Of a stretch of 64,000 nucleotides of DNA, positions 24,717-64,000 are shown in pieces; positions within the stretch are counted from its first letter, which is position 1, and the number at the start of each line of letters is the position of its first letter. The notes under the pieces are model-generated. The model searched no databases and had not been told where the DNA came from. It was given only the letters and a program-made list of their open reading frames with translations. The position numbers and the translations under genes were made by a program. The stretch is taken from IMG/VR virus record IMGVR_UViG_3300035520_000906. One strand, given 5' to 3'. Source of the stretch: an uncultured virus (IMG/VR IMGVR_UViG_3300035520_000906) (taxonomy: Duplodnaviria; Heunggongvirae; Uroviricota; Caudoviricetes).

Positions 24717-25187
24717 TTATAGGTTTAACCTCATTTTTGTTATGTCCTTGCTATTTACTTCTTGAACAGGCTCACCTACTTTGAAGTCCTTGTATACTTT
24801 AATTTCATTATTAAACACATGTAACCTGATTAATGGTACAAGTCTTTCTAATGAATATTTATCTCCCATTCCAAATGCAATAAGTCCATTTTTCTTATTG
24901 TATAAGTATAGTTGAACATCACCATACTTAGATACAAGTGACTTTAAGGACTGCTTCTGCATTACATTTATTGATTCTAATGTTGTGAAATCAAATATAT
25001 AATTATATGGAGCTATCTCTGTATCTTCTTTTAATATCAGTGTTTTTATTTTTTCTCCAAGTATTGCTCCATCTATTGATTCAGAAATCAACTTTGATTC
25101 TGTTTCAGTTACAGTACTATCTATACTTGGTAATGCTATATCATTTTCATCAACACTAAACAACTTAATGTTTTCTTCATTATCCAT
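24717..25187 (-). CDS. Hypothetical protein
   Basis: ORF overlapping the upstream stop. Confidence 0.7.
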   Translation of the reverse strand: MDNEENIKLFSVDENDIALPSIDSTVTETESKLISESIDGAILGEKIKTLILKEDTEIAPYNYIFDFTTLESINVMQKQSLKSLVSKYGDVQLYLYNKKNGLIAFGMGDKYSLERLVPLIRLHVFNNEIKVYKDFKVGEPVQEVNSKDITKMRLNL

Positions 25188-26916
25188 TATTGCTACTCCA
25201 TCCTAATTTTAAAAATCCACAATCATATATCTTTAGGTATCCGCTCTGGATCATCTCACTATCTTCTATGTCACACTCCTTGACTATATCTCTATTTTGT
25301 GTACTTACCCAAGTGTAGCTTGGTTCTGATATACTATCAATTATTTTAAATCCTAGTTTTGTGTATACATTCCCAGTAAATTTTGATATATCTATGTTTA
25401 TTGTTATTTCTTCTGGCTTATATTTTTCTATAAAATAATTTAATATTTTATCCACACACTTTAATGTTAATGTCTCTGATTTACAATATACTTCTTCTAG
25501 TGTATAGCGATTGTTTTGCATATTATTAAATCCCAACATACATATTATTTCATTGTTTATCCTATATCCTATACATATGTTGGATTTAGCTTTATTGCAG
25601 AAAGCATTATTATGTATGAATACATTATATTCTTCACTATCAATTAGTTCTTCTACCTTTACATTATCATCTATATTTTCTATATTTTTATATTTATCCT
25701 GCAACAAGTATCTTAAGTAATTCTTAATTTCTCTCTGTCTATCTTTATTTTTCCATTCGTACTCAAAAATATGAATTAGGTGTATTCCTTGCTTTGCACA
25801 TGATATTGTTTTTTCTTGATGATATTCTTTTGATTTATTTATTGTTGAATGCCAGTAGTCTCCATTAAACTCTATTGCTAATTTCTTCTCTGGGATGTAT
25901 ATGTCTAATTCTTTTGGGCTTATTATCTTTCTTGTATCTTCAATAATTTCACCATTGTATATAGATTTAATAAAGTCTGCTACTTCTGACTGTTGTATTT
26001 TTAGTGAATGATACTTGTCCAATTTATAGTCAGTTATATTAAATCTCTTTGTTGCCTCATATACTCCTGTTCTTGTTACCCCAAGTACTTCTGCTATCTC
26101 TTGATTACTCACTTTTCGTCCATAGTTGTAAATTATTAAATTTATGGCATCCAATAATTTATCTTTATCATTAAGTATCTCTATTTGCCAGTCTTCTCTA
26201 GGTTCGCCGCTCTTAAAGTCTCCATATATGTTTAGTCTAGAATTTATTGTATTTATATATCTGTTACAACCACATGATTTTGAATTACCAAGTCTTAATG
26301 ATACTCCAGATACATTCTTAATAGTTCCGCATGAACATTGGCATTTCCAATAATGATTTCCTGTGTATTCTAAAGCTGTCCACTCGCCAAATGTTTGTCC
26401 AGTTAAATCTTTAAATTGTGATGTACTATGACCACATGATGTTGATTTGCCATACATTAATGAGTATGAATGCACGTCTTTTATCTCTCCACATGAACAC
26501 CTACATGTAAAGTATCTGTCTTTATCTGATCTCTTTAATACTTGCCACTCACCAAACCTTTGCCCTGTTAAGTCTTTAAATCCTGTGGTACTATGACCAC
26601 AGGATTTTGTTGCTCCTCGCCTTAGCTCGTGTCCGTCTATTATCTTTACTTTTCCGCAAGAACATTGGCAAGTCCACTTCTGCTTTCCATTGTATTCCAT
26701 TACTTCCCATTCGCCAAATCTTTTATTTGTTAGGTCTACAAATTGGTTCTTTCCATGCCCACATGATTTAGACTGCCCATTCCTTAGTGACTTCGTTGCA
26801 ACCATTTTCTCGTTACCACAAGAACAAACACATCTGTACTTGCCATGCCCATCGTATTCAAATACTGTCCATTCATTTATTTTTGTTCCATACTCTATTT
26901 CTATTCTACTTGGCAT
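25180..26916 (-). CDS. Homing-endonuclease-like protein: 4 Cys repeats, HTH, Vsr/DUF559-like nuclease, C-terminal domain
   Basis: 4x GEW..CxCSCG..LRxG.S.SCG[H/C]; ELDIYIPEKKLAIEFNGDYWH. Confidence 0.8.
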   Translation of the reverse strand: MPSRIEIEYGTKINEWTVFEYDGHGKYRCVCSCGNEKMVATKSLRNGQSKSCGHGKNQFVDLTNKRFGEWEVMEYNGKQKWTCQCSCGKVKIIDGHELRRGATKSCGHSTTGFKDLTGQRFGEWQVLKRSDKDRYFTCRCSCGEIKDVHSYSLMYGKSTSCGHSTSQFKDLTGQTFGEWTALEYTGNHYWKCQCSCGTIKNVSGVSLRLGNSKSCGCNRYINTINSRLNIYGDFKSGEPREDWQIEILNDKDKLLDAINLIIYNYGRKVSNQEIAEVLGVTRTGVYEATKRFNITDYKLDKYHSLKIQQSEVADFIKSIYNGEIIEDTRKIISPKELDIYIPEKKLAIEFNGDYWHSTINKSKEYHQEKTISCAKQGIHLIHIFEYEWKNKDRQREIKNYLRYLLQDKYKNIENIDDNVKVEELIDSEEYNVFIHNNAFCNKAKSNICIGYRINNEIICMLGFNNMQNNRYTLEEVYCKSETLTLKCVDKILNYFIEKYKPEEITINIDISKFTGNVYTKLGFKIIDSISEPSYTWVSTQNRDIVKECDIEDSEMIQSGYLKIYDCGFLKLGWSSNNG

Positions 26917-30635: not shown

Positions 30636-32636
30636 TTACTGGCCTATCCATTCTAATTTTAAGTTACCTGAATCGTATATCTTCAAAAAATTAAGTTTTT
30701 TCATTATTTCATCTTCATTTAGATTTTCTGTTTCAAGCCAATTTTTTATTAAATCTGTTTTTTGGACTTGGTACTTTGTTAATACTTCTTTTCTATCATA
30801 AGATACCCATACATAATTTGGCTCACTTATTGGTGTAAGTGTTGTCTTGAATCCTAATTTTAAATATTCATTACCTGTAAATTTTGATATGTCTATACAT
30901 ATTACTATTGATTGTGGATTATACTTATCACAAAAATAACTAAATAATTTTTCAAGACCTCCTACTATATCAATATTGAATTTATTACAATATCTTGTTA
31001 TCTCATATTGATATTTATTGTTGTGTTTGAATTTACTAAATGATATTACTGATATAATCTCATTATTATAAAATAATCCTAAGTTTATATCGGCATAGCT
31101 GTAATTTTGTAAACTGTATCTATCCAAGAAGCTCTTTGCACTATCATCACTTATCTCATGTACTTCTGTATCTGTGTCATATATTATTTCTAACTTATCA
31201 TGTATGCAACTCTTTATATGATTACATATCTTTTTCCTCTTATTGTCGTTGTCCCATTCATGCTCAAATACATGAATTAGGTGTATTCCTTGCTTTGCAC
31301 ATGATATTGTTTTTTCTTGATGATAATATTTATCCTTCATATCATCTGAGTGCCAGTAGGTTCCGTTAAACTCTATGGCTAGCTTCTTTTCTGGGATGTA
31401 GATATCAAGTTCCTGACCATTTAGTATTAATCTATCAGATTGTATTATGCTATACTTTGATATACTATTTACATATTCAAATAGTTCAGTCTCTTTATTT
31501 GAAATGTTTGGAGCTATGTCTACAAGGTTTTCTAGTTTATACGTATGTATTGCATTTAATATCACTGATTTACATACGTCTAAGTCTGTTTGTAATTGAT
31601 ATACAGTTGGTTTAGTATTATATTTCTTTAGGTATTCCTCCATTTGTTCTCTGTTTTCCAGTGTATTTATTTGCCACATAGATCTAGGATTGTGTATCCT
31701 ATTTGGAGTTATATCCATGTATCTTTCTAATAATGTCATCTTGGATAATTTCTTAGACATACAACCACATGATTTTGTTGTACCATTGCGTAATGCATGC
31801 CCATATATGTTTTTAATAGTTCCGCATGAGCATTTACACTTCCATTTCATATCTCCTACATACTCTAATACTGTCCACTCACCAAATTGCTGTTCTGCTA
31901 AATCTATAATATTGGCTGAATGACCACATGATGTTGATCTACCTAGTCTTAATGATGACCCAGATACCCTACCTATAGCACCACAGGAACACTTACACTT
32001 CCAATATCCATTGTCTATGTAGTCAATAACCTCCCATTCTCCAAAGTGTTTTCCTTTTAAATCTATAAAATTGTTTGTTGCATGCCCGCAAGATGTTGAT
32101 CTCCCAAGTCTAAGTGACACACCATCAACTATCCTAGTGTTTCCGCAAGAACACTGACATAGCCATTGTTTACTACCTGCATATTTAATAACTGTCCATT
32201 CCCCAAACTTTTCATTGGTTATATCTTTTATACTAGCATATCTGCTTTCATGCCCACATGAAAGTGATTTATGACTTGTTAAGCTATATGTACTTACCTC
32301 TCTTTCTTCTCCGCATGAACATCTACATAGATAATGCTGGTTACCAGTATATTTAAGAACACTCCATTCACCTATTTTTGTTCCTTCTAATTTATTACGC
32401 ATTTTATGACCGCATGATAATGATTTTCCTGATGTTAGAAAGTATTTTTGCATAGCCTTATACGTTCCACAAGAACACCTGCACAGCCATAGCTTATCCC
32501 CAAAATAACCCACAACGTGCCACTCACCAAATTCCTTACCAGTTAAATCATCTTTAATGTATCCGTTTAAGTTTTTAATATATTTTCTGTAGTTATTATC
32601 ATTTATATATGAATAATCTATTTTACTTTTTGGCAT
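30636..32636 (-). CDS. Homing-endonuclease-like protein: 5 Cys repeats plus Vsr/DUF559-like nuclease (paralog of 25180..26916)
   Basis: Five copies of the same repeat; ELDIYIPEKKLAIEFNGTYWH. Confidence 0.8.
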   Translation of the reverse strand: MPKSKIDYSYINDNNYRKYIKNLNGYIKDDLTGKEFGEWHVVGYFGDKLWLCRCSCGTYKAMQKYFLTSGKSLSCGHKMRNKLEGTKIGEWSVLKYTGNQHYLCRCSCGEEREVSTYSLTSHKSLSCGHESRYASIKDITNEKFGEWTVIKYAGSKQWLCQCSCGNTRIVDGVSLRLGRSTSCGHATNNFIDLKGKHFGEWEVIDYIDNGYWKCKCSCGAIGRVSGSSLRLGRSTSCGHSANIIDLAEQQFGEWTVLEYVGDMKWKCKCSCGTIKNIYGHALRNGTTKSCGCMSKKLSKMTLLERYMDITPNRIHNPRSMWQINTLENREQMEEYLKKYNTKPTVYQLQTDLDVCKSVILNAIHTYKLENLVDIAPNISNKETELFEYVNSISKYSIIQSDRLILNGQELDIYIPEKKLAIEFNGTYWHSDDMKDKYYHQEKTISCAKQGIHLIHVFEHEWDNDNKRKKICNHIKSCIHDKLEIIYDTDTEVHEISDDSAKSFLDRYSLQNYSYADINLGLFYNNEIISVISFSKFKHNNKYQYEITRYCNKFNIDIVGGLEKLFSYFCDKYNPQSIVICIDISKFTGNEYLKLGFKTTLTPISEPNYVWVSYDRKEVLTKYQVQKTDLIKNWLETENLNEDEIMKKLNFLKIYDSGNLKLEWIGQ

Positions 32637-51777: not shown

Positions 51778-52884
51778 TTAATATCCTCCTGACTTTAATT
51801 GCTTTGTAAGTACCTTTCTATCTCTGTGTACTACATCTTCTATATCGTACTCTTCATTAAGTTCCTTTACACTTTTTAATCCTGTATACCACCCATATAC
51901 TCTTGATTCAAACATATCATCACTTGCAACTACATTAGAATCTTCATTCATACCAGTCATTCCAGCAGTGTATTTCTCAAATTTTTGTCTGTATGATTCA
52001 TAGTTTTCTTCTGCTTTATTAAACTGTACACATATGTCTGATGTATACATTCCAATGCTTCTGCAACTCATTACTATATCATTTATTACTGTGTATAATA
52101 GTACAACTCTTGTGCTGTCAATCATATCTGTATGAGCTGTATTACAAATAATATTTGATATCTCAATAAGTTTCATTGGAGTTGCTTCTTCATCATAGTC
52201 TTTAGTATCAATAATATTAAAGAAGAACACTGCTATTAACTTATCATCATTTGCCTTTCTAACTTCATACATAAAGCCCTTATCAATATAATTATTTGAT
52301 GCTTCATTTATATAGCTTGTATCCATATTATAAAATTCATTATAGGCTGTGATAAAGTTCTCTATTTCATCTGTTAATTTCTTAATCTTATTGATTTTTA
52401 TATTAACCTTATAAGTTACAAGTCTCTTTTTATGTGCTATTTTTGTATTCCACAGTGGAACTTCCAATGCCATTGTATTACTGTCAAACATCAATATGTT
52501 TTTATCTGTGAGCCATATGTACTCATTCAAATATTTTCTTGTAATCTCTATTAACTGTTTCTTATATTTATTTTTTAGATATGCTAATGTGCCATATACT
52601 GCTATGATATCATCAGTTTTTTTACTGTTACAATCACTACATAATGGTATAAGATTTTCAATCTTATTGTTTCCACCTTTATTTAAAGGTATAAAATGAT
52701 CAACTGTAAAGTCTTTATCCCCAACTGCTATATGTTTACCACACATAGCACATTTGCAATCAGTTTTCTTTGCTACTGCTTCTTTTATATCTCTAGTCAA
52801 CCATTCTCTCTCGTAGTAATTGCATCTATTAAGTTTTACACTATACTCAGAAGTACTTTCTTCCAATTTCTTTATGTCTCCCAT
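51778..52884 (-). CDS. HNH endonuclease with C-terminal extension
   Basis: CAMCG...TVDHFIPLNKGGNNKIENLIPLCSDCNSKK. Confidence 0.85.
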   Translation of the reverse strand: MGDIKKLEESTSEYSVKLNRCNYYEREWLTRDIKEAVAKKTDCKCAMCGKHIAVGDKDFTVDHFIPLNKGGNNKIENLIPLCSDCNSKKTDDIIAVYGTLAYLKNKYKKQLIEITRKYLNEYIWLTDKNILMFDSNTMALEVPLWNTKIAHKKRLVTYKVNIKINKIKKLTDEIENFITAYNEFYNMDTSYINEASNNYIDKGFMYEVRKANDDKLIAVFFFNIIDTKDYDEEATPMKLIEISNIICNTAHTDMIDSTRVVLLYTVINDIVMSCRSIGMYTSDICVQFNKAEENYESYRQKFEKYTAGMTGMNEDSNVVASDDMFESRVYGWYTGLKSVKELNEEYDIEDVVHRDRKVLTKQLKSGGY

Positions 52885-52983
52885 TGAAGTCCAATGCCCT
52901 CTCTTTCTACCCCTAAATATTAAAATAAGCAACTAACTATACTAAACAGTCAGTTGCTTATGTTGTACCTTAATTTTTAGTTG

Positions 52984-54414: not shown

Positions 54415-55343
54415 TTATCTTAAATTGTATGATTTTATCCAACAATGAATCGTTGAATCAGTTCTCCCATACATGCTGGCAATTTGTTTCTTTTGTATAC
54501 CAGCATCTAAGAGTTGTTTTAACTCTTCTTTAGATGGTTTTGGTGACTTTCCCTTTGCTGCTACATTTGAACATGCATTACACATTCCAGTCTTTGATTG
54601 TGATGTTATTGGTTTACCACATATTCTGCATGTTATTTTCTTATTACTTGCTTTAGCTACTTTACATTCTTTCATGTTATCATATTCATTTTTCCAGTCA
54701 TTAAATTGTTTATAATACTTATCTATGTCTTCACAATACAAAAAATGCATACTTAAATATTTATTTTTATACTTACATGCCTTACTTATTGCTTCTACCA
54801 CTGTCCATTTATTTAATGCTTGTGGTATATTTTCACTTATTAAGTACTCGGCACATTGTGAATAATTAACAAAAATTTTATTTAATTCTACACATATTAT
54901 CTGTCTACTTTGTGTTCTTATTTTAACCTTATTAGCTGATAATAATGTCAAAATTGTAATATCTGAACAATTATATTTTCTTGCTATATATATAACGAAC
55001 TATATCCAGATTTATATAATTGTATAATATCATCTATATCATCTTCTAATTTAGAATATGGTGCATTTCCACCAGGTGTTGAATTATACCCATTCTTATA
55101 TGAGTTAAAATATGAAATCCAATAAATTTCTCTTTCATTCAGTAGCTTACTATCACATTCCTCTATTAATTCAATATAAAAGTTATCAGACCCATACTTT
55201 TTTATTGCTCTATATAATTTAAGATGTTCACCTCTAGTATTTGCTATGTGTTCCTCAAATCTTTTACTTATAGGTCTTATTGTTTGCCCTATGTAAACTC
55301 TGCTATTAATCTTATTTCTAATTGCATAAATATATCCTATCAT
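54415..55343 (-). pseudogene. GIY-YIG homing endonuclease split by an extra TA in a (TA)5 run
   Basis: GYIY...YIGQT...REIYWI...GYN; removing TA near 54985 fuses both ORFs through HTH SSLYIARKYNCSDITILTLL. Confidence 0.8.
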
Positions 55344-55391
55344 ACTATGTACTCTCTTGTGTATGTGTCAAAATGCTTAATGATATTATAA

Positions 55392-55476
55392 TGCCGGTAA
55401 CAGGACTTGAACCTGCACCAGTATTTAGCTGAATAGGACCTAAACCTATCGCGTCTGCCAATTCCGCCATACCGGC
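55392..55476 (-). tRNA. tRNA-Leu(UAG)
   Basis: GCCGGTA acceptor, ATAGG-TT TAG GT-CCTAT, long variable arm, GTTCAAGTC; no encoded CCA. Confidence 0.95.
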
Positions 55477-55571
55477 ATGTATCTTTTGTTTTAATAAAGG
55501 GAGGTGACGAGCCTCCCCGACCTACGCAAATGTTGTCATCATTCTGCGTGGAACTATGTTTTAGTTCCAAA

Positions 55572-55683
55572 GCACTTTTAGCAAGAGTTGCACTTGCATT
55601 TTGTAATGATTACTACTTTCTTTCATAATTTAGAAAATAGCTCGCGCTACAAAACTGATACTAACTGCTCATCATAAAAGCAC
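55572..55683 (-). ncRNA. tRNA-like RNA with extended anticodon arm
   Basis: Acceptor-like GTGCTTTTA/TAAAAGTGC, D-like hairpin, T-arm GCAAG-TGCAACT-CTTGC. Confidence 0.55.
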
Positions 55684-55958
55684 ACGGTATATAGACCTTT
55701 GCAACTATATACCATTTTGAGGTGATTTCTGTTTCTGTGTCATGTAGATTTTCACTTACTCTTGAAGCTACTTTTTCAACTATAAGTATATATCGTTTCA
55801 ACTTATAGTCTATACATTACGTTACTGTGTCCAGGTCTGCCTCGTGCGTTGGCACGCTTTTACATTCATTTAATCCCTTATGTACTAGCCTATCATAATA
55901 TATTATGGAACCTTATATAAGGCTGAATGACAGGTTTTAAATTGTAATCCTATTAAAA

Positions 55959-56540
55959 TTAAATGTTTCCTCTAGGGAAATTCATTCTTACATATGATAT
56001 TGCATCACTACTCAATAAGTCAAATGCATTGTCCCCATACAAAAATTGAAGCTCATTTGCAATCATTAATTGTGTGATTAGTCCCTTGTTATCGTCTGCT
56101 AAACCAGATAAATCTTTGAAATCTTTTTCTCTATATGATACTAATTTCATACATATAGCATCTAAATCACATATTTTATATACGTTTAAGCAACTGTATG
56201 ATTTTACTGGAATTGCATTTGCCTTTAACCTAACACTAAATGATTTTGTTTTAGTTGCATCTGTATTTAACCAGTCACTTGTGATTGAATACATATGTTT
56301 TACTTTGTTTATACATGACTTTATATCAATGGATGGCTCAATATAACTATCAATATCTTCTGTCATTGTTCTAAATGTATGCCCTAATATCAATGATGAT
56401 CCACCAACTAATAACATATCAATCTTAATGTACCCATATTTTTCAAATATGCAATTATTAAGTGCTTCCAAATATATGTTCATGTTATATTTACTTATAT
56501 ATGGATATTCAGCTTCGTGTGGCATGTATTCCTCCAACAA
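55959..56540 (-). CDS. DUF6036 / AbiEii-like nucleotidyltransferase
   Basis: LLVGGSSL...RTMTEDIDS...MKLVSYREKDFKD. Confidence 0.8.
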   Translation of the reverse strand: MLEEYMPHEAEYPYISKYNMNIYLEALNNCIFEKYGYIKIDMLLVGGSSLILGHTFRTMTEDIDSYIEPSIDIKSCINKVKHMYSITSDWLNTDATKTKSFSVRLKANAIPVKSYSCLNVYKICDLDAICMKLVSYREKDFKDLSGLADDNKGLITQLMIANELQFLYGDNAFDLLSSDAISYVRMNFPRGNI

Positions 56541-57000
56541 CTGTATCTATCTCTGACACGATTAAATTGTATTTATAGAATATATCTATTCTATTTTTAT
56601 AACTATCTAGTATCTTATTATATGCCCCAAAGTTACTAAACATAACAGGAGTCTCACCAAATAATAGTTTATCTAATTTCTTACCATTGTATAAACTAAC
56701 TATCTCTGGTAATTCGAGATTTTCGCTATTACAAATATATTCAATGTATGCTATTGCATATAGTTGCTCCCACTCTCTCCACAATGATATTCTTTCTTTC
56801 GAAAGATATTCATATATTAACTTTTCACTACCCCAAGATTTTCTGTAATGCTCTAATGCACTTATAAAGGAATAGTAATTTGTATAATCATATTCTTTGT
56901 AATAATCTAAATGCAGTGATTCAAATTCCTCTTTGCATTTTAATTGGTACTCATTGTATTGTTTTTCTTCTTCTGGAGTAATATCAAACATATTTTTCAT
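56509..57000 (-). CDS. Partner (putative antitoxin) of the DUF6036 gene
   Basis: Overlaps the downstream gene; LYAIAYIEYIC...LPEI...Y..KKL. Confidence 0.6.
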   Translation of the reverse strand: MKNMFDITPEEEKQYNEYQLKCKEEFESLHLDYYKEYDYTNYYSFISALEHYRKSWGSEKLIYEYLSKERISLWREWEQLYAIAYIEYICNSENLELPEIVSLYNGKKLDKLLFGETPVMFSNFGAYNKILDSYKNRIDIFYKYNLIVSEIDTVVGGIHATRS

Positions 57001-57020
57001 GCTATTTTCTCCTATTAAAG

Positions 57021-57127
57021 TGACATATACCTCTAGTTCTAGTGAACTAATCGACTAGAACGATCTGAAACTGAAACCCATAAGAGAAAGAGAGGGTCGT
57101 TCACGTCAAACTAGATAATATATGTCA
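57021..57127 (-). ncRNA. Long interrupted hairpin with pyrimidine-rich loop
   Basis: TGACATATA/TATATGTCA, TCTAGTT/AACTAGA, GAACGA/TCGTTC nested stems. Confidence 0.5.
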
Positions 57128-57159
57128 GTACTAAACCTCTAGTAAGTTTAATACTTAAT

Positions 57160-57469
57160 TCATTTCAATAACCTACACATGCACCCTATCGTCTGCACCC
57201 TGCCTCTATCACTTCTATACAGAAGTGACCTATCCAACATCCTTGGTTATTGAACATTGTCATCGCCACCAGTGATGACTTACAGTAGTCATTTGCCACC
57301 TTGAGAAGTTCGTTACCGACTCGTATGGGAACTTAGGTTCTACTTCTCTCAACTACTCCATAGTCGTATCGTTGTCGACCAACGTCAACCCTTAATCATT
57401 CCCGCTCATGCGGGCTCATCCCTGAGGAACATCATATAAAATATGTGCTATTCCGTTGAGCATCCTCAG
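57160..57469 (-). ncRNA. Unrecognised ~310-nt structured RNA, copy B
   Basis: Paralog of 57531..57835 with identical 23- and 33-nt blocks and compensatory stem changes. Confidence 0.8.
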
Positions 57470-57530
57470 TAGATTAGCAGACTTTTACTGCATTGATCAC
57501 TTAAGCATACAGTTTAATTATATGCTTAAG

Positions 57531-57835
57531 TCATTACATAGCCTACTGCTAGATAAATCTAGTCCACAACCTCTCCACAACCTTAGCTATGTACATTGCC
57601 ACCGCCACAGTGATGACTTATGATAGTAATTTAACAACCTTGAGAAGTTTGTTACCAACTCATACTCCCTAGGCCTAATAAACTTTCGTTTAAACTCCTG
57701 TTTGTATGGGAACTTAGGTTCTACTTCTCTCAACTATCCCTTAGCTGTATCGCTTTCAGCCGACGTCAACCATTAACTGTTTAATGAGGAACACATATAA
57801 AACGAGTCATAAGTGCTATTCCGTTGAGCATCCTC
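57531..57835 (-). ncRNA. Unrecognised ~305-nt structured RNA, copy A
   Basis: Starts 3 nt after tRNA-Leu; covaries with copy B. Confidence 0.8.
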
Positions 57836-57838
57836 TAA

Positions 57839-57918
57839 TGCGGATAGAGGGACTCGAACCCTCAAGCCGAAGCGTGGCAGCTTAAATGCCATGTGTTTGC
57901 CAATTTCACCATATCCGC
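57839..57918 (-). tRNA. tRNA-Leu(UAA)
   Basis: GCGGATA acceptor, TGGCA-TT TAA GC-TGCCA, GTTCGAGTC. Confidence 0.95.
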
Positions 57919-58746
57919 TTATTTTATACTTTCTATAAATTTATTGTATTTTCTCTGCATAACTCCGTATTGTTTATTCTTTGTTATATAGAGCTGTCTA
58001 AATTTTGTAAAGGATTCTTTACTGTGTATATAGATAATCCTAATACTGTCTCTACTGCTTACACTGTATTCTATACCAATACCTCTTAGTATTTCTTGTA
58101 TACCTTCTGCATTTGAATAATTAGATGCTATTGTTATAGCATTAGGAGATACTGACACAGAACCATCCCCATCAAAGAACCCAATCATAAAATCTATTCT
58201 ATACTCGTAAGGTATATAATTTATAAATGGTATGTCCTTGTACTTTTTACCCTGTACTATCCCAAATTTTGCAAGGTCATTTACTATTTCATCTGAAATT
58301 ATCTTAATGTTTACTGCATCAAATTCATGTTTAATTCCATTGCTATCAGTATAACTAGCTGTGTGGTCATGAACTTCATAGTCAGACTCAGTAAATTCTA
58401 GAAATCTTTGTAATGTCTCTCTATCTCTTGCATTTAATACAAATCTTAATGAGTTATCTACAACACTTCCATCAGATGCTATAAATCCTAACCAATATGC
58501 TGTATCTGCATTAATTGTTTTGAATATATTGTCATTTACCTTATGCTTTCTGAAATCTTTTTCAGGACATTTTTCTTTTCCAGTGTATCCCTTTAATCCT
58601 TGATTTGTCTTAAATACACCAATCCTAATAGCATGTTCTCTATATGTTTTGTAGTTTATTCCAAGCATTCTTGCTGCTTCAGCAGCTGATCTAGAGTTCT
58701 CTGCCGCATATGCAATTTGTGCATCTGTTACATCTATTGTATTCAT
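57919..58746 (-). CDS. Double-motif LAGLIDADG homing endonuclease with N-terminal HTH
   Basis: AYWLGFIASDGSV and DFMIGFFDGDGSV; stop codon abuts the tRNA. Confidence 0.9.
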   Translation of the reverse strand: MNTIDVTDAQIAYAAENSRSAAEAARMLGINYKTYREHAIRIGVFKTNQGLKGYTGKEKCPEKDFRKHKVNDNIFKTINADTAYWLGFIASDGSVVDNSLRFVLNARDRETLQRFLEFTESDYEVHDHTASYTDSNGIKHEFDAVNIKIISDEIVNDLAKFGIVQGKKYKDIPFINYIPYEYRIDFMIGFFDGDGSVSVSPNAITIASNYSNAEGIQEILRGIGIEYSVSSRDSIRIIYIHSKESFTKFRQLYITKNKQYGVMQRKYNKFIESIK

Positions 58747-58769
58747 TTCATTACACCCGCTTTATAAAA

Positions 58770-59305
58770 GTGGCTTAAGGTCACCACAACCGCACATCTG
58801 TTGATTACTGGAACATTTGCTCTTTCCAATAGTTGTCTTTCCAACTGTCCACCAGTTTAACCTAGCTAATGCCACGTAGTATAGACTTCAGCTTAAGAAC
58901 TCAACCTTCCTAAGTCATACCCGATTTATGTCGGGATATCCACCCACTCTATCTAACTGGCAAGTAATCCACTATGGTGCTTCCAACCAGTTTGTAGAAC
59001 TCAACCACATTTGTCTACTTGTGCTACCCCAATATACTTCACAGTAGCTTTCCACATTCAATTTTGCAGGTCATTCCAACCCACTGGACAGACTCAACCA
59101 TCAACATACTGTCTTGTATCGCCCCATTGACTTGCCCATAGCGACTTTCCAACCACATGCATTCTCGGGAACTTCCCGAAGGTCCATGCAAACCTTTCAA
59201 ATTGCCGTCGACAAGCAATACGAGGTAGGTCATTCACACTAGCTTAACTACACCTGAGCTGCTCGATAACATGCCGCCTTGTTAAGTTCCCTCTAACAGT
59301 GCTCT
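58770..59305 (-). ncRNA. Large ornate ncRNA (~540 nt), ROOL/GOLLD-like in size and context
   Basis: GC-richer non-coding block after tRNA-fMet with more than 10 hairpins and repeated GGTTGAGT and GGTTGGAA motifs. Confidence 0.7.
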
Positions 59306-59310
59306 TTGAG

Positions 59311-59384
59311 TTGCGGGGATAGGACTTGAACCTACATACTCTTGGTTATGAGCCAAGTGAGCTTCCATTGCTCGTCACCCCGCG
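59311..59384 (-). tRNA. tRNA-fMet(CAU), initiator-like
   Basis: CGCGGGG with C1:A72 mismatch; CTTGG-CT CAT AA-CCAAG. Confidence 0.9.
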
Positions 59385-59394
59385 ATAATATAAA

Positions 59395-59524
59395 TTTGTG
59401 ACCTTCCACAATCACAATGCTGAGAAAATCTGTAAATCCACAGTTGTATACAACTGCCTCAGCCCTACACATTAGTGCCTCAGAAGGTTTCCGCTTTTAT
59501 GTGCCACCTACAAGTAATCACAAA
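59395..59524 (-). ncRNA. Candidate 130-nt structured RNA
   Basis: TTTGTGA/TCACAAA, GCACAT/ATGTGT, GCTGAG/CTCAGC, CAGTTG-TATA-CAACTG. Confidence 0.55.
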
Positions 59525-59585
59525 GAAGAAAATGTACACTTTCTTTACTGAGTGTGTACTAACTCTTTTAAGGTCTTTCGACCAG

Positions 59586-59659
59586 TGGACCATGTAGGAC
59601 TCGAACCTACGACCGCTCGGTTATGAGCCGAATGCTCTGACCAACTGAGCTAATGGTCC
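59586..59659 (-). tRNA. tRNA(CAU), probably Ile2 (lysidine)
   Basis: GGACCAT acceptor and body typical of Firmicute tRNA-Ile2; CT CAT AA loop. Confidence 0.85.
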
Positions 59660-59687
59660 AAATTTTAATGTAGTTCTTATCTTTTAA

Positions 59688-59763
59688 TGTAACAAGGAAA
59701 TAACTTACTAACTGATGCCTCGTCAATGATGTCTTACCTGCGTTCAGCCACTTCCTTACTACA
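59688..59763 (-). ncRNA. Candidate small RNA, 18-bp G-U-rich stem
   Basis: TGTAGTAAGGAAGTGGCT pairs with AGTTATTTCCTTGTTACA. Confidence 0.55.
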
Positions 59764-59765
59764 AG

Positions 59766-59841
59766 TTGGAATGCTGGGATTCGAACCCAGGACAGACGTG
59801 GGGTATAAGCCTACCGCTCTAACCAACTGAGCTACATTCCA
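59766..59841 (-). tRNA. tRNA-Ile(UAU)
   Basis: TGGAATG/CATTCCA acceptor, GTAGG-CT TAT AC-CCCAC (one mismatch), GTTCGAATC. Confidence 0.85.
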
Positions 59842-59889
59842 TTAATATGTATTATCAGAAATTACTTTCTGTCTCAACCTTACTTAATT

Positions 59890-59918
59890 ATTATATCATC
59901 TTTACTTTCTTTTGTCAA
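59890..59918 (-). promoter_or_regulatory. Consensus sigmaA promoter
   Basis: TTGACA-17 nt-TATAAT with extended TG. Confidence 0.9.
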
Positions 59919-59982
59919 GAACTTTTTAAAACCTTTTTCAAATAAATTTGAAATCAATTTTTATATCCTTAACACATTTATT

Positions 59983-60011
59983 ATATTATCATATAATATT
60001 TATTTTGTCAA
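59983..60011 (-). promoter_or_regulatory. Second tandem sigmaA promoter
   Basis: TTGACA-17 nt-TAATAT with extended TG. Confidence 0.65.
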
Positions 60012-60046
60012 CTACTTTTTTCAAAAATTTTTTATATTTTGAAAAG

Positions 60047-60129
60047 TGTAGGTAGTGGGACTTGAACCCACACTCATTAAATGAACAGCATCCTTAGTGC
60101 TGCCTGTCTGCCAATTCCAGCATACCTAC
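60047..60129 (-). tRNA. tRNA-Leu(AAG)
   Basis: GTAGGTA acceptor, CAGCA-CT AAG GA-TGCTG, long variable arm. Confidence 0.9.
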
Positions 60130-60142
60130 AAATCTTTATAAG

Positions 60143-60222
60143 TGCTCCCTGAGGGACTTGAACCCTCACCCTCTCGGAACAGATTTTGAATCTGTCGTGT
60201 CTGCCTATTCCACCAAAGGAGC
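60143..60222 (-). tRNA. tRNA-Leu(CAA)
   Basis: GCTCCTT acceptor, ACAGA-TT CAA AA-TCTGT. Confidence 0.95.
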
Positions 60223-60235
60223 TTACTTATTAAAG

Positions 60236-60312
60236 TGGAGCCTACGTGAATCGAACACGCCTGATTTCCTCTTTGCAAGAGAGGTGACCACCCCAATGCA
60301 GTCCCAGACCCC
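60236..60312 (-). tRNA. tRNA-Ala(UGC)
   Basis: G3:U70 pair, CCTCT-CT TGC AA-AGAGG. Confidence 0.9.
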
Positions 60313-60379
60313 ATATTACAGGAACCTATTATTCTTTACACCAAAAGAGTTTTAATTGCTGTATGGTTCCCAATATAAA

Positions 60380-60453
60380 TCGACGTTGCCGGATTCGAAC
60401 CGACGGCCTCTTGATCCCAAATCAAGCGCTCTACCAAACTGAGCCAAACGTCG
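60380..60453 (-). tRNA. tRNA-Pro(UGG)
   Basis: CGACGTT acceptor, CTTGA-TT TGG GA-TCAAG. Confidence 0.95.
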
Positions 60454-60465
60454 TTATTATTTTAG

Positions 60466-60544
60466 TGTGCCTAGAGGGACTTGAACCCTCACGCCGAAGC
60501 AACTGGGCTTAAACCAGTTGTGTCTGCCATTCCACCACAGGCAC
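60466..60544 (-). tRNA. tRNA-Leu(UAA)
   Basis: GTGCCTG acceptor, ACTGG-TT TAA GC-CCAGT. Confidence 0.95.
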
Positions 60545-60579
60545 ATTTATTTGTATCTCTTAATCATTTCTACACTCTT

Positions 60580-60607
60580 ATTATACATCATAATTACTTT
60601 TTGTCAA
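60580..60607 (-). promoter_or_regulatory. sigmaA promoter heading the tRNA array
   Basis: TTGACA-16 nt-TATAAT. Confidence 0.8.
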
Positions 60608-60679
60608 CTACTTTTTTAAAAATTTATTAGAAAAATTTCATAATGTTTTACTAATTTTTAGTTAAGTTTAATAAACATA

Positions 60680-60775
60680 CTAACTGTATTGGTATGTTTC
60701 AATGTTTATCAATCTTAAGTTTGTTTTGGCTCCCAATATAGCAGGGTCACCGAGGTCAGCTAATGCGGGGTCCAT
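60680..60775 (-). CDS. 31-aa small ORF
   Basis: AGGAGG RBS; MDPALADLGDPAILGAKTNLRLINIETYQYS. Confidence 0.4.
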   Translation of the reverse strand: MDPALADLGDPAILGAKTNLRLINIETYQYS

Positions 60776-60794
60776 CTTGTTTCCTCCTGTACAT

Positions 60795-60833
60795 AAAAAT
60801 AACCGTTAAGCTCATTCAATGGCTTAACGGTTA
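60795..60833 (-). terminator. Intrinsic terminator
   Basis: TAACCGTTAAGC/GCTTAACGGTTA stem plus T-run. Confidence 0.75.
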
Positions 60834-60874
60834 GTATCTTTATTATGAAAGTCATTAAATTAGCTAAAACCCTA

Positions 60875-60979
60875 TTAAATTTGCACGTTTATAAGACCTA
60901 TCAAAGCTAATATTGATAGGTTTGCTAGTGCTGCGGGTAAGCTAACTATGCTATTTACATTATTTCTAATGCAATCCAT
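60875..60979 (-). CDS. 34-aa hydrophobic small ORF
   Basis: AAGGAG RBS; MDCIRNNVNSIVSLPAALANLSILALIGLINVQI; followed by a terminator. Confidence 0.45.
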   Translation of the reverse strand: MDCIRNNVNSIVSLPAALANLSILALIGLINVQI

Positions 60980-61034
60980 GACTTTTTCTCCTTAAATATT
61001 TATTAAAAACATACTTTTATTATGTGAATGTAGT

Positions 61035-62228
61035 TTATTTCGTCTTTAATTTTTCTCTCAGGCTTTCACAATCTATTTGTCCAAGCTTTCTTTGTTTCTT
61101 TAATTCACTTATGCATTCTCTTATCTTTATATCTCTAATTGAATCAACACTTATAGCTGTTACATATGATGTTTCTAATTCAGTACTTATGTATAAACTT
61201 TGTAATCTCTCAAGCCTCATAAAATTTGTAACTGATAATGATTTTAAATTCTTAGGAAACTTAACATCAACTGGATATGTATTCATAAATATTCCATCAT
61301 GCAACTTCTCTATTTTTGTATCGTATATATCTATGATTTCTAATGGAGTAAATTTGAATGCCTGACTACCTATCAATCTTAAATCTCCACTTATAGAAAT
61401 TTTATGTATGTGAGATGTTAAGAATGCTCCAGTTCCTATTATACTAAGTTTATCATTAAAATCTACTGTCAAATCACACTCTGAGCAATATGCAAATGCA
61501 AAATCTCCAATCTCTGTTACATTGTCTCCTAATCTAACATAAGATAGTCCTTTACAATTTGCAAATGCTGTTTTACCTATTTTTTCTACTGAATTACCTA
61601 TGTAAATACTTTTTATATGTGTATCACAAAAAGATTTGTCTGCTATGTATTTTACAAAGTCAGGTATTACTAGCTGACTATTTATGTCTTTGCTATTTCT
61701 ATATCCTGTAACTACTAATTCATTGTACAAGTCAAAATCATAAGATAATGTACTCTTACCAGTCATTGCTAATTTATAATTATATGATTCCATCTTATAA
61801 ATTAGATATGCTCGTTTATTTATTGTAGGTATCTTACCAAATTTAGTTGTTATACCATTACCAACAAATTGAATACCACTAAACTTATCTCTGTTGCTCT
61901 TTATTTCTTGTAATGTCATTCTTCTTAAAATACAATTATTATCTGCCACTAGATATGCTCCATCTTGGAATTTAAAAAGAATAACTAATTTATTTCTTAG
62001 GTCTACTACTGTACCTTTTCTATTATAGTTTACAAGTATTATCTTTTTATATTTACTGTCTGGTACGTAATGTTCTGCCTTTACTGCTTTCCCACTTTGT
62101 ATCATACTATCTATTTCGTATTGAGTTATACTTGTTATTGTCATATAATTTGTATTTATTGCACTATATATTTCTCCATAGGGTTCTTCTGATGCTTTAT
62201 ATAATATAATTGTATAATTACTATTCAC
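61035..62228 (-). CDS. BspA-type LRR protein
   Basis: IGKTAFANCKGLSYVRLGDNVTEIGDFAF. Confidence 0.88.
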   Translation of the reverse strand: MNSNYTIILYKASEEPYGEIYSAINTNYMTITSITQYEIDSMIQSGKAVKAEHYVPDSKYKKIILVNYNRKGTVVDLRNKLVILFKFQDGAYLVADNNCILRRMTLQEIKSNRDKFSGIQFVGNGITTKFGKIPTINKRAYLIYKMESYNYKLAMTGKSTLSYDFDLYNELVVTGYRNSKDINSQLVIPDFVKYIADKSFCDTHIKSIYIGNSVEKIGKTAFANCKGLSYVRLGDNVTEIGDFAFAYCSECDLTVDFNDKLSIIGTGAFLTSHIHKISISGDLRLIGSQAFKFTPLEIIDIYDTKIEKLHDGIFMNTYPVDVKFPKNLKSLSVTNFMRLERLQSLYISTELETSYVTAISVDSIRDIKIRECISELKKQRKLGQIDCESLREKLKTK

Positions 62229-62255
62229 TTTGCACCTCCCTATAATTTTGATTGT

Positions 62256-63050
62256 TTATCTTTTAAATAAGCTGAATATTGACACTTTCTTATCTTTATC
62301 TCCAGGATATTCTGTCTCAATAAGTTTGTTAGCTGTCATTTTATTTTTTATTGATTGCTTTCTATAATTGTTTTTATAGGTATCTCTAAGTCTTACTTCA
62401 AATTCACTTAATATATCTCTGCTACCACACCTATAAACCTTAACTTCAACTGTACTCTTAAACACATCAGATATGTCTACTTGATTTGATTTGGTTTCTA
62501 TCTCACCCTCATGTATTTCAGTTGAGTCACTTCTATCTGATACATCATCATTGTATCTTATAATTACTTTTAAATTTTCAGGTTTTTGATTATTTACATT
62601 AAATAGTATATTGTAATCTGAAAAATAGTATGTTCCATTCTCAGTCATGTCACCATAATATCTTGTTCCGCAGTCTACTTTATTTATTATTTTAACATCT
62701 GCATTATACTTATACATACCGAGTAATGCAGCAGCTTTTACTGCTATATCATCTATTTCTGCAAAGGTGTCTTTCGGATTTTTTCTTGTAGGTGCATCCT
62801 TAGTTGCATGCTCACCCTTAAATTCTTTTCTCAAACTGAAATCTGATGAGTCACTTATTTTTGGTGTTGTTGACATTAATCTTCCATCTGATGTTAATGT
62901 TAAATTATCAACTTTTAGTTTATTTGATGCTATTAAATTTTTTAACTCAGTTGCACCTATGTCCTGTATATTTCTGTTAGCATCTTGTAGTTTGTATCCT
63001 ATTATTTTTCCTGTATTGTCTCTAAATTTATATATACAGGTTACTTCCAT
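62256..63050 (-). CDS. Hypothetical protein with recurrent N-terminal module
   Basis: EVTCIYKFRDNTGKIIGYKLQD...ELKNLIASNKLKVDNLTLTSDGRL. Confidence 0.8.
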   Translation of the reverse strand: MEVTCIYKFRDNTGKIIGYKLQDANRNIQDIGATELKNLIASNKLKVDNLTLTSDGRLMSTTPKISDSSDFSLRKEFKGEHATKDAPTRKNPKDTFAEIDDIAVKAAALLGMYKYNADVKIINKVDCGTRYYGDMTENGTYYFSDYNILFNVNNQKPENLKVIIRYNDDVSDRSDSTEIHEGEIETKSNQVDISDVFKSTVEVKVYRCGSRDILSEFEVRLRDTYKNNYRKQSIKNKMTANKLIETEYPGDKDKKVSIFSLFKR

Positions 63051-63071
63051 TTCTATACTACCTCCTTAAAT

Positions 63072-64000
63072 CTATCTGTTTAGTTCAATTACCTCCATGA
63101 AATAATCATAATCTTGCCTGTATAAACTGTACATTTCCACTAAGCTTATCCAACCAAGTCTATGAAATTCTTCTTCTGTTATTGCTTTGTAATTTGCTTT
63201 ATTATGTTTTCCAGTTTTCATAGCTCGTAATGTATCTTTAGTGTATAAGTCTATTTCCTTTAAAGATTTAGTTGTTGATATTCTAGGAAATGAATACATT
63301 GCCCAACCAAATGTTGTATCATTACTTATTGCACAAAATAAATTTTTATTATTAAGCTGTCTTATTATTCTTCTTGCTACTATTTCAAATGACTCATGAT
63401 CTTTTTCAATACATATTCTACCTTTTCTACACCATCTATGTATTTGTTTCTTAATCTTTTGTTTTGCATGGTCAGATATGTCTATCTTCCCATCGCCCAT
63501 TAGCTTAAGTCCTAAATACTCTATGTCATCTCCAGGCTCGAACCATGTATATTTTTCTGGATTCATTGTTAATCCATACTGCTCCAAAAAATCAATTATT
63601 ATATCTAAGTCTTTTTGTAAATCCTCTTTTGACTTATCTAAAACTATTATGTCATCACTATATCTTGCATATACCTTATTTTTATCTTCAAAGTATTCAT
63701 CACAAGGTTTTAAACACCAATTTGCAAAGAAGCTTCCAAATGCACACCCAGGAATTAATGCCTTCCATTCTTCAATTTCTTTGCCGTTCCACATAACTTT
63801 ATCAGATAACATTAAATTTTCAACAGTCTTTTTTAATCCCCCATTGAATAATTCATTTATCATTTCAGCAACCTTTTCTCTTGAAACGCTGTTGAAATAA
63901 GCATGTATGTCAACCTTTACACCAAATCTAAGTTCATCATTTCTATTATCCTTGATGTATTGAATTGCATGACCTGTACTTTCACCAGTTTTATATGAAA
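63072..64000 (-). CDS. Reverse transcriptase (YSDD) with maturase-like C-terminus; 5' end outside the window
   Basis: Frame open to the edge: SYKTGES..AI, KVDIHAYFNSV, LIPGCAFGSFFAN, YARYSDD, GLTMNPEK, IEYLGL, GWAMY..SLKEIDLY..LR. Confidence 0.92.
   Translation of the reverse strand, partial: SYKTGESTGHAIQYIKDNRNDELRFGVKVDIHAYFNSVSREKVAEMINELFNGGLKKTVENLMLSDKVMWNGKEIEEWKALIPGCAFGSFFANWCLKPCDEYFEDKNKVYARYSDDIIVLDKSKEDLQKDLDIIIDFLEQYGLTMNPEKYTWFEPGDDIEYLGLKLMGDGKIDISDHAKQKIKKQIHRWCRKGRICIEKDHESFEIVARRIIRQLNNKNLFCAISNDTTFGWAMYSFPRISTTKSLKEIDLYTKDTLRAMKTGKHNKANYKAITEEEFHRLGWISLVEMYSLYRQDYDYFMEVIELNR

Follow-up and report, generated by a model that had tools for sequence, protein, structure and literature searches.

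What is encoded in the 563 nt that separate a tRNA-Met gene from a LAGLIDADG homing-endonuclease gene in an uncultured phage? An earlier note on this DNA had described the gap as a densely hairpinned RNA with periodically repeated loop motifs, either ROOL-like or new. We analyzed it within the window, the whole stretch of 64,000 nt in which it lies. The window appears to be a segment of a large uncultured phage rich in A+T. Its G+C content per 1-kb bin is 26-42%, and every ORF of 100 aa or more, overlaps set aside, is on the minus strand. Among its genes are a family-A DNA polymerase, primase-like and methyltransferase genes, several homing endonucleases of the HNH, GIY-YIG and LAGLIDADG types, and a reverse transcriptase that neighbours a BspA-type LRR protein. 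Ten tRNA genes were found by ARAGORN and Rfam at 55391-60544, all on the minus strand; the candidate RNA is thus on the same strand as all ten tRNAs and all large ORFs.

Several other features of this neighbourhood were recorded along the way. Half of the tRNAs are tRNA-Leu (anticodons tag, taa twice, aag and caa), with two tRNA-Met(cat) and one tRNA-Ile(tat). Homing-endonuclease genes are unusually dense (25180-26916, 30636-32636, 51778-52932, 54984-55343 and 57919-58746): the DNA polymerase gene is flanked by HNH-type genes, one further HNH gene is present, and GIY-YIG and LAGLIDADG genes both lie within the tRNA region. A 193-aa DUF6036 nucleotidyltransferase and an unannotated ORF of 163 aa overlap between two tRNA-Leu genes (55959-57000, minus strand), and the two may form a putative nucleotidyltransferase-based pair such as MNT-HEPN. 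The reverse transcriptase ORF (RVT_1) overruns the end of the window, upstream of a 264-aa ORF and the BspA-type LRR protein; this minus-strand region (61035-63998) may be a diversity-generating retroelement, and no template/variable repeat pair was seen for it in 57000-64000.

The candidate stretch has a G+C content of 44%, above the range of the 1-kb bins. Its longest ORF encodes 64 aa, and with table 11 no frame stays free of stops for more than 64 codons. A coding role with another genetic code was considered and rejected: the sole long frame (150 codons) lies on the plus strand and requires TAG to be read through, single-stop reassignments on the gene strand give no coding, and the genes of the window, which are all on the minus strand, are intact with table 11. 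The stretch is a real sequence feature and probably a structured RNA gene; the case for it is made by its non-coding status, its composition, its position in an operon, the clustering of motifs and the compensatory hairpins between its units. The features discussed below are collected in Table 1.

Table 1. Positions in the window of the candidate RNA, its parts and the elements next to it.
Feature	Position	Strand	Basis or remark
Candidate non-coding RNA, ~545 nt	58765..59309	minus	ends predicted from the 3' end of tRNA-Met and the terminator-like hairpin with its T-run
5' domain	59165..59309	minus	self-comparison and folds; fragments of further units
Unit A, three-hairpin module	59066..59164	minus	MAFFT alignment A3, RNAalifold, model R1 (115.5 bits)
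Unit A stem 1	59145-59141 / 59122-59118	minus	
Unit A stem 2	59113-59109 / 59091-59087	minus	
Unit A stem 3	59082-59080 / 59070-59068	minus	
Unit B, paralogue of unit A	58973..59061	minus	alignment, RNAalifold, model R1 (99.2 bits)
Unit B stem 1	59048-59044 / 59027-59023	minus	
Unit B stem 2	59018-59014 / 58998-58994	minus	
Unit B stem 3	58989-58987 / 58977-58975	minus	
Unit C, rearranged variant	58885..58992	minus	sequence and predicted fold
GGTTGAGT copy 1	59092..59099	minus	3' edge of the loop of unit A hairpin 2
GGTTGAGT copies 2 and 3	58999-59006, 58899-58906	minus	
GGTTGGAA in unit A	59074..59081	minus	hairpin 3 (5' strand and loop)
GGTTGGAA, other copies	58981-58988, 59147-59154	minus	in unit B hairpin 3; ahead of unit A stem 1
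Terminator-like hairpin	58770..58787	minus	5 pairs, 8-nt loop, then TTTTAT
Sigma-70-type promoter	59890..59918	minus	consensus 12/12 (TTGACA, 17 nt, TG-TATAAT); ahead of tRNA-Ile, tRNA-Met, tRNA-Met and the RNA
Second sigma-70-type promoter	60607-60580	minus	perfect, 12/12; ahead of the other tRNA block
tRNA-Met (CAT)	59310..59384	minus	directly 5' of the candidate RNA; no encoded CCA
LAGLIDADG homing-endonuclease gene	57919..58746	minus	directly 3' of the candidate RNA

Short motifs recur in the stretch, exactly at the positions given for them in the earlier note. All three matches to GGTTGAGT in the window fall in the candidate stretch, as do three of the five matches to GGTTGGAA. The placement of GGTTGAGT in three hairpin loops also holds, each copy occupying the 3' edge of its loop. 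Three different 8-mers each occur at least three times, which none of 500 dinucleotide shuffles reached (shuffle mean 0.02). GGTTG is present in seven copies against 0.98 expected and TGGAA in six against 1.15, neither count being reached in 1000 shuffles. The proposed internal period of 93-100 nt describes the spacing of GGTTGAGT (93 and 100 nt) and fails for GGTTGGAA (73 and 93 nt). The best autocorrelation lags are 93 and 100, with 7 and 6 shared 6-mers; for the best lag over 200 shuffles, the 95th percentile is 6 and the highest count 8. Because the observed counts lie near this shuffle range, periodicity taken by itself is only marginally above chance. Tandem Repeats Finder detected no near-identical tandem array in the candidate stretch.

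As had been noticed before, GGTTG recurs in a neighbouring tandem non-coding block (five copies in 57001-57838). This second block, at 57090-57838 on the minus strand directly behind a tRNA-Leu gene, holds two tandem paralogous core copies of ~260 nt with a mean column identity of 76% and large indels. RNAalifold predicts 60 shared pairs for them, 5 of which are compensatory, and no Rfam match was obtained for the block at E ≤ 5. It is probably another uncatalogued RNA, present twice.

Comparison of the stretch with itself revealed a 32-nt block repeated 93 nt apart, which could be extended to two units, A and B, with G+C contents of 50% and 40%. Aligned by MAFFT without structure input, the units are identical in 52 of 87 columns (60%), and the identity is unevenly distributed: it reaches 43 of 61 (70%) in unpaired columns and 9 of 26 (35%) in paired columns. 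Three hairpins occupy the same alignment columns in both units. Stem 1 comprises 5-6 bp with a 16-18-nt loop ending in TGGGG, and the linker after it reads ACAA; stem 2 comprises 5 bp with a 15-17-nt loop ending in TGGTTGAGT; hairpin 3, located 4-5 nt further on, has the stem GGT/ACC and a 7-nt loop, TGGAAnn. All 13 specified pairs form in both units, and in 8 of them both sides have changed. In a control with the partners slid by 1-3 columns, pairing falls to 27-54% with at most one double change, and the observed pairing values were reached by 4 of 500 shuffles. RNAalifold independently recovers the same three hairpins, with 15 pairs, 8 of them compensatory. Among 3000 column-shuffle trials, at least one shared 5-bp helix with at least three double changes appeared in 0.27%, and two such helices, the number observed in the A/B alignment, in none. 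The covariation measured here is that between two paralogous units of one sequence.

A covariance model built from units A and B, R1, found only these two significant among its six matches to the window at E ≤ 10, and no further full unit. The modular architecture of the candidate therefore rests on two good units and fragments. The 200-nt spacer between the two tRNA-Met genes (59385-59584, minus strand, 37.5% G+C) has neither an Rfam match nor a unit-like match to R1, and could hold a further small RNA.

The remaining parts of the stretch are less regular. The third copy of GGTTGAGT lies in the loop of an 8-bp stem unrelated to the stems of A and B. It belongs to unit C, in which GGTTGGAA is followed by a hairpin CCCGA/TCGGG and then by the 8-bp hairpin with its 7-nt loop, GGTTGAG. 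The 8-bp stem has a pair probability of 0.63-0.70 in the full-length ensemble; as a whole unit, C was undetected by R1. The 5' domain contains a TCGGGA/TCCCGA hairpin, a 13-mer that resembles the start of unit B stem 1 and a 9-mer that recurs unchanged at the end of unit A hairpin 3. At the opposite end, the 5' side of the terminator-like hairpin agrees with the hairpin-3 motif at 11 of 14 positions in the self-comparison. Two terminator-like sites occur in 4 kb against 1.8 expected; the site by itself is at chance level and is weak evidence.

The hairpins named in the earlier note, TCGGGA/TCCCGA among them, are present both in the sequence and in the predicted folds. Folding energy, on the other hand, gives no support to the claim that hairpins are dense. 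The z-score of the minimum free energy (MFE) is -0.62 for the minus strand and -1.91 for the plus strand; for the full-length minus strand, 21 of 100 shuffles fold as well. Folds of single units have z-scores of -0.03 to -1.13. In the full-length ensemble the pair probability is ~0-0.01 for stems 1 and 2 of unit A and stems 2 and 3 of unit B, and unit A with its three hairpins enforced has an energy of -16.7 against a computed MFE of -26.5, a gap of ~10 kcal/mol. An alternative fold, seen in the MFE structure of unit B, pairs TGGAA with the 3' strand of stem 2; it was rejected, its register not being common to unit A in alignment columns read by eye. For a 545-nt RNA we place more weight on the compensatory pattern, a predicted covariation drawn from two paralogues, than on energies computed from single sequences.

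The location of the stretch and the size of its units raise the question of whether it is debris of tRNA-gene duplication, that is, degenerate and functionless fragments of tRNAs or of the array, with hairpins and loops as leftovers of tRNA arms and of D- and T-loops. The stretch lies inside the tRNA array, and a period of ~93-100 nt equals one tRNA plus spacer. Positions 59093-59065 of unit A can be aligned to the phage tRNA-Ile across its variable region and T arm (23 matches in 29 columns), hairpin 2 of unit B resembles the T arm of the tRNA-Met at 59585-59659, and part of unit C (~58959-58929) resembles tRNA-Ile from the D loop to the anticodon arm. In addition, a single change separates each of GGTTGGAAT and GGTTGAGT from T-loop strings found in the phage tRNAs. 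However, the best local tRNA alignment, to the T arm of tRNA-Ile, has a score of 28 that 10.7% of 300 shuffles reach and is not significant, and the 6-, 7- and 8-mers shared with the ten tRNAs are at shuffle level (P 0.46-0.73). The alignments are suggestive, and because of these chance rates tRNA descent of the units is a lead only. The Rfam tRNA model matches nothing at E ≤ 10, and ARAGORN predicts nothing inside the stretch. Traits common to A and B are non-canonical for a tRNA: the loops are expanded to 15-18 nt, ACAAG is present, and TGGTTGAGT stands at a loop edge. Even with an origin from tRNA genes, both units must thus go back to a single unit that was already derived. After their divergence the stems changed at 65% of positions with every pair kept, a pattern unlike neutral decay that argues for selection on the fold. 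The stretch has also held its 44% G+C amid bins of 26-42%. We consider the debris explanation unlikely.

A derivation from tRNA could also have led to a functional molecule. The units would then be three-hairpin mimics, derived from a tRNA-Ile-like gene that lost its acceptor stem and whose loops grew, and would serve as a multivalent decoy or docking platform for a tRNA-recognising factor, such as a defence nuclease of the host that cleaves tRNA or an enzyme that processes or modifies tRNA. The RNA would then be encoded next to the replacement tRNAs that the phage itself carries. We regard this proposal as quite unlikely; if true, it would connect RNAs of this kind with the conflict between phage tRNAs and host defence that targets tRNAs. 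Direct pairing of the motifs with the phage tRNAs was rejected as anecdotal. The motif copy of unit A (59073-59081) contains a 7-mer of the 5' acceptor strand of tRNA-Ile (59765-59841), and because it equals that strand it is complementary to the 3' end of the same tRNA (8 contiguous pairs, -8.6 kcal/mol); this applies to one of the three motif copies.

How would the RNA be produced, and what would it do? Between the promoter ahead of tRNA-Ile and the RNA we found no minus-strand promoter-like site, and this promoter is the likely start of the transcript. The presence of two consensus promoters suggests that the host uses TTGACA/TATAAT promoters and that the tRNAs are transcribed strongly and early. 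We tentatively favour, at somewhat less than even confidence, the explanation that the stretch encodes a stable structured non-coding RNA belonging to an uncatalogued family, the last element of a tRNA operon, which displays its motifs multivalently. Transcription of the RNA, its ends, its stability and its binding function we infer as follows. The RNA would be transcribed from the promoter at 59918-59890. Since the preceding tRNA-Met has no encoded CCA, normal 3' processing of that tRNA would free the 5' end of the RNA, which would end at the weak terminator (58787-58770). Its core would be made up of tandem units, each ~90-100 nt long and bearing three short hairpins, that have diverged but keep the loop and linker strings TGGAAAG, TGGGG, ACAAG and TGGTTGAGT and the GGT-TGGAAnn-ACC hairpin. 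One RNA would thereby show the same single-stranded motifs three to six times, and its most likely job would be multivalent binding of one partner, a protein or an RNA, as a sponge or scaffold during infection. Presentation to one partner would be the most economical reading.

No complement of the conserved motifs was found within the RNA, and they pair with the rest of it no better than with shuffled versions. This suggests that the strings are probably exposed and shown repeatedly. In the model the conserved loop motifs are exposed and unpaired, as would also suit a self-assembling multimer made of RNA only, in which the repeated motifs provide intermolecular contacts; this is the oligomerisation raised in the earlier note. 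ROOL and GOLLD, to whose niche and size class the candidate belongs, form cages held together by kissing loops and A-minor contacts, as the excerpted text of 10.1101/2024.12.08.627333 describes them. The candidate, however, matches neither the ROOL nor the GOLLD model, and no loop complementary to the motifs exists: even the best duplexes are less stable than those of shuffles on average (-6.8 against -7.8 and -7.0 against -8.1), and CAACC, the complement of GGTTG, has no copy. Its tandem units set it apart further, as to our knowledge neither ROOL nor GOLLD is reported to be built of such units. A multimer of this kind therefore appears very unlikely.

Another use of the same transcript would be as a long structured 5' leader of the endonuclease mRNA, controlling read-through or translation and having no job of its own. 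The downstream gene is assigned to Pfam LAGLIDADG_3 (E 1.4e-11) and to the endonuclease family phrog_4645 (E 1.4e-32). Its ORF starts 18 nt past the T-run that follows the terminator-like hairpin, with no minus-strand promoter-like site between, and there is a precedent in T4, which according to the excerpted text of PMC3014915 controls I-TevI through an inhibitory RNA helix at the start site. Such a leader, though, requires one hairpin at the start codon and not 545 nt with duplicated units and conserved loops. The protein search of IMG/VR recovered five distant loci of the endonuclease (24-30% identity), and none of them has a similar sequence upstream: the best R1 match (13 bits, in locus L028) has a broken stem 1, is one of 33 similarly weak matches and is noise. 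We attach little probability to the leader reading. The LAGLIDADG gene is taken here as a neighbour of the candidate RNA and not as a part of it. We also rejected a group I intron carrying this gene: no Rfam intron model matches at E ≤ 10, the stop of the ORF abuts tRNA-Leu, and both flanking tRNA genes are whole.

The repeats could instead act at the level of DNA, as iterons with hairpin potential that bind a protein in replication, packaging or partition. The motif copies are all directly repeated and point the same way, and the compensatory stems would suit hairpins of single-stranded DNA as well. Against this, the spacings (73, 93 and 100 bp) do not amount to whole numbers of helical turns, the G+C content of the stretch exceeds that of its surroundings, unlike that of an AT-rich origin, and its position is within a transcription unit, with a tRNA on one side and a terminator-like site on the other. 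Several G-U pairs of the minus strand (columns 22-49, 27-44 and 85-99) would moreover be A-C mismatches on the other strand. A DNA element is in our judgment highly improbable.

Is the proposed RNA of a known family? The suggestion of a ROOL-like RNA did not hold as a statement of family membership, the whole window giving no Rfam match to ROOL at the gathering score. The covariance-model check recommended for ROOL, GOLLD, HEARO and OLE yielded no match, whether at the gathering score or at E ≤ 10, and in the scan of 57500-61000 at E ≤ 10 no Rfam model, tRNA included, matched the stretch. A scan of the 573 bases alone at E ≤ 10 returned solely a chance match to mir-567 (19.8 bits against a gathering score of 90). 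ROOL, GOLLD, HEARO, OLE, tRNA, tRNA-like RNAs, group I introns and Csr/Rsm RNAs, as Rfam models them, are thus excluded. No IscB-type gene was seen among the scanned ORFs, a subset of all. A ToxI-like type III antitoxin RNA was likewise rejected: there is no tandem array, the units are just 60% identical, and the neighbouring gene is a LAGLIDADG endonuclease. The other half of the original suggestion, a new RNA with repeated sites, fits a non-coding, G+C-enriched stretch in a tRNA operon that has paralogous units, compensatory hairpins and conserved loops.

Searches for homologues covered phage, viral, genomic and metagenomic sequences. In distant mode, blastn against 50,697 phage records matched five, all on the tRNA-Met part of the query. 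The pattern GGTTGAGT-N10-GGTTGGAA occurs at 26 loci in IMG/VR, about the number expected by chance under an assumed collection size; 24 of these fall within open frames of 200 codons or more, and alignments to the stretch are 31 nt long at most. A second IMG/VR pattern occurs at two loci, neither matched by R1, and the scan of genome contigs gave none. The two-unit pattern was found at one locus among the metagenome matches listed, inside a 565-codon frame that is unlike the window and by eye looked like leucine-rich repeats. Among the retrieved loci, R1 was run on 16 of 34 and never scored above 15.8 bits, whereas the real units reach 99-115 bits, and blastn of the stretch against seven returned nothing.

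The phage lineage itself was sought through its proteins. The LRR protein, PolA and alignment A1 have no match in IMG/VR viral contigs, nor has A1 in genome contigs, and tblastn of three further proteins found no match in the phage records. By four proteins the lineage has no relatives among GenBank phages, and by the probes used none in IMG/VR or GTDB genomes. One neighbouring protein has, besides a 100%-identical entry, a 77%-identical relative in the protein collection, and relatives of 32-37% identity on contigs of up to 526 kb. The candidate thus comes from a phage lineage without relatives in the reference collections searched, and the evidence for the RNA is one sequence; because no homologue was found in these collections, our confidence is limited.

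With these results the candidate can be set beside RNAs of known systems. According to the excerpted text of 10.1101/2024.12.08.627333, ROOL and GOLLD are "often near tRNA islands", the GOLLD member env-38 lies downstream of a Met-tRNA, and many members of GOLLD exceed 800 nt. The candidate, like ROOL in this description, is a phage non-coding RNA of ~0.5 kb that adjoins a tRNA island on the strand of the tRNAs; it sits directly behind tRNA-Met in an array of ten tRNAs, with phage-type genes around. It differs from ROOL in having no match to the ROOL model, in its tandem paralogous three-hairpin units, and in the lack of predicted pseudoknots and of any loop-loop complementarity found. With GOLLD, as far as the excerpted text portrays it, the candidate shares a phage origin near tRNA islands and, as in env-38, the place downstream of a Met-tRNA; at ~545 nt and without a match to the GOLLD model, it is unrelated in sequence and architecture.

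T4 makes two RNAs from its tRNA region, RNAC and RNAD, to which the excerpted text of PMC3014915 assigns no role. The candidate resembles them, on that account, in being encoded in the tRNA region of a phage. The T4 RNAs are much smaller, at ~120-140 nt, and the blastn search of the phage records gave tRNA matches only. The tRNA region of T4 also contains a homing-endonuclease gene. We know of no function for ROOL, GOLLD or RNAC and RNAD, an old puzzle, and of no protein partner for ROOL.

The proposed mode of action is closest to that of CsrB/RsmZ-type RNAs, in which a short motif is presented many times, both in hairpin loops and in linkers, so that many copies of a partner are bound; similarly, TGGAA is shown in the 7-nt loop of hairpin 3 of the candidate. 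The repeated strings are different, however, being TGGTTGAGT and TTGGAA and not A(N)GGA, and Rfam gives no match. An enrichment of GGA of the CsrA type is absent (13 copies against 13.85 expected), in contrast to that of TGGAA. In common with tRNA-like RNAs, the candidate has three consecutive hairpins, of which the last is T-arm-like with a GG...CC closing stem and a T-loop-like string, and it lies within a tRNA array; it differs from them by the missing acceptor stem, by loops of 15-18 nt and by the lack of an Rfam match to tRNA or tRNA-like models. The candidate is an occupant of the niche of ROOL, GOLLD and the T4 RNAs that belongs to a different family and has a tandem-unit build. This architecture is simpler, with repeated units that show the same loop motifs, and it makes the question of the binding partner directly testable.
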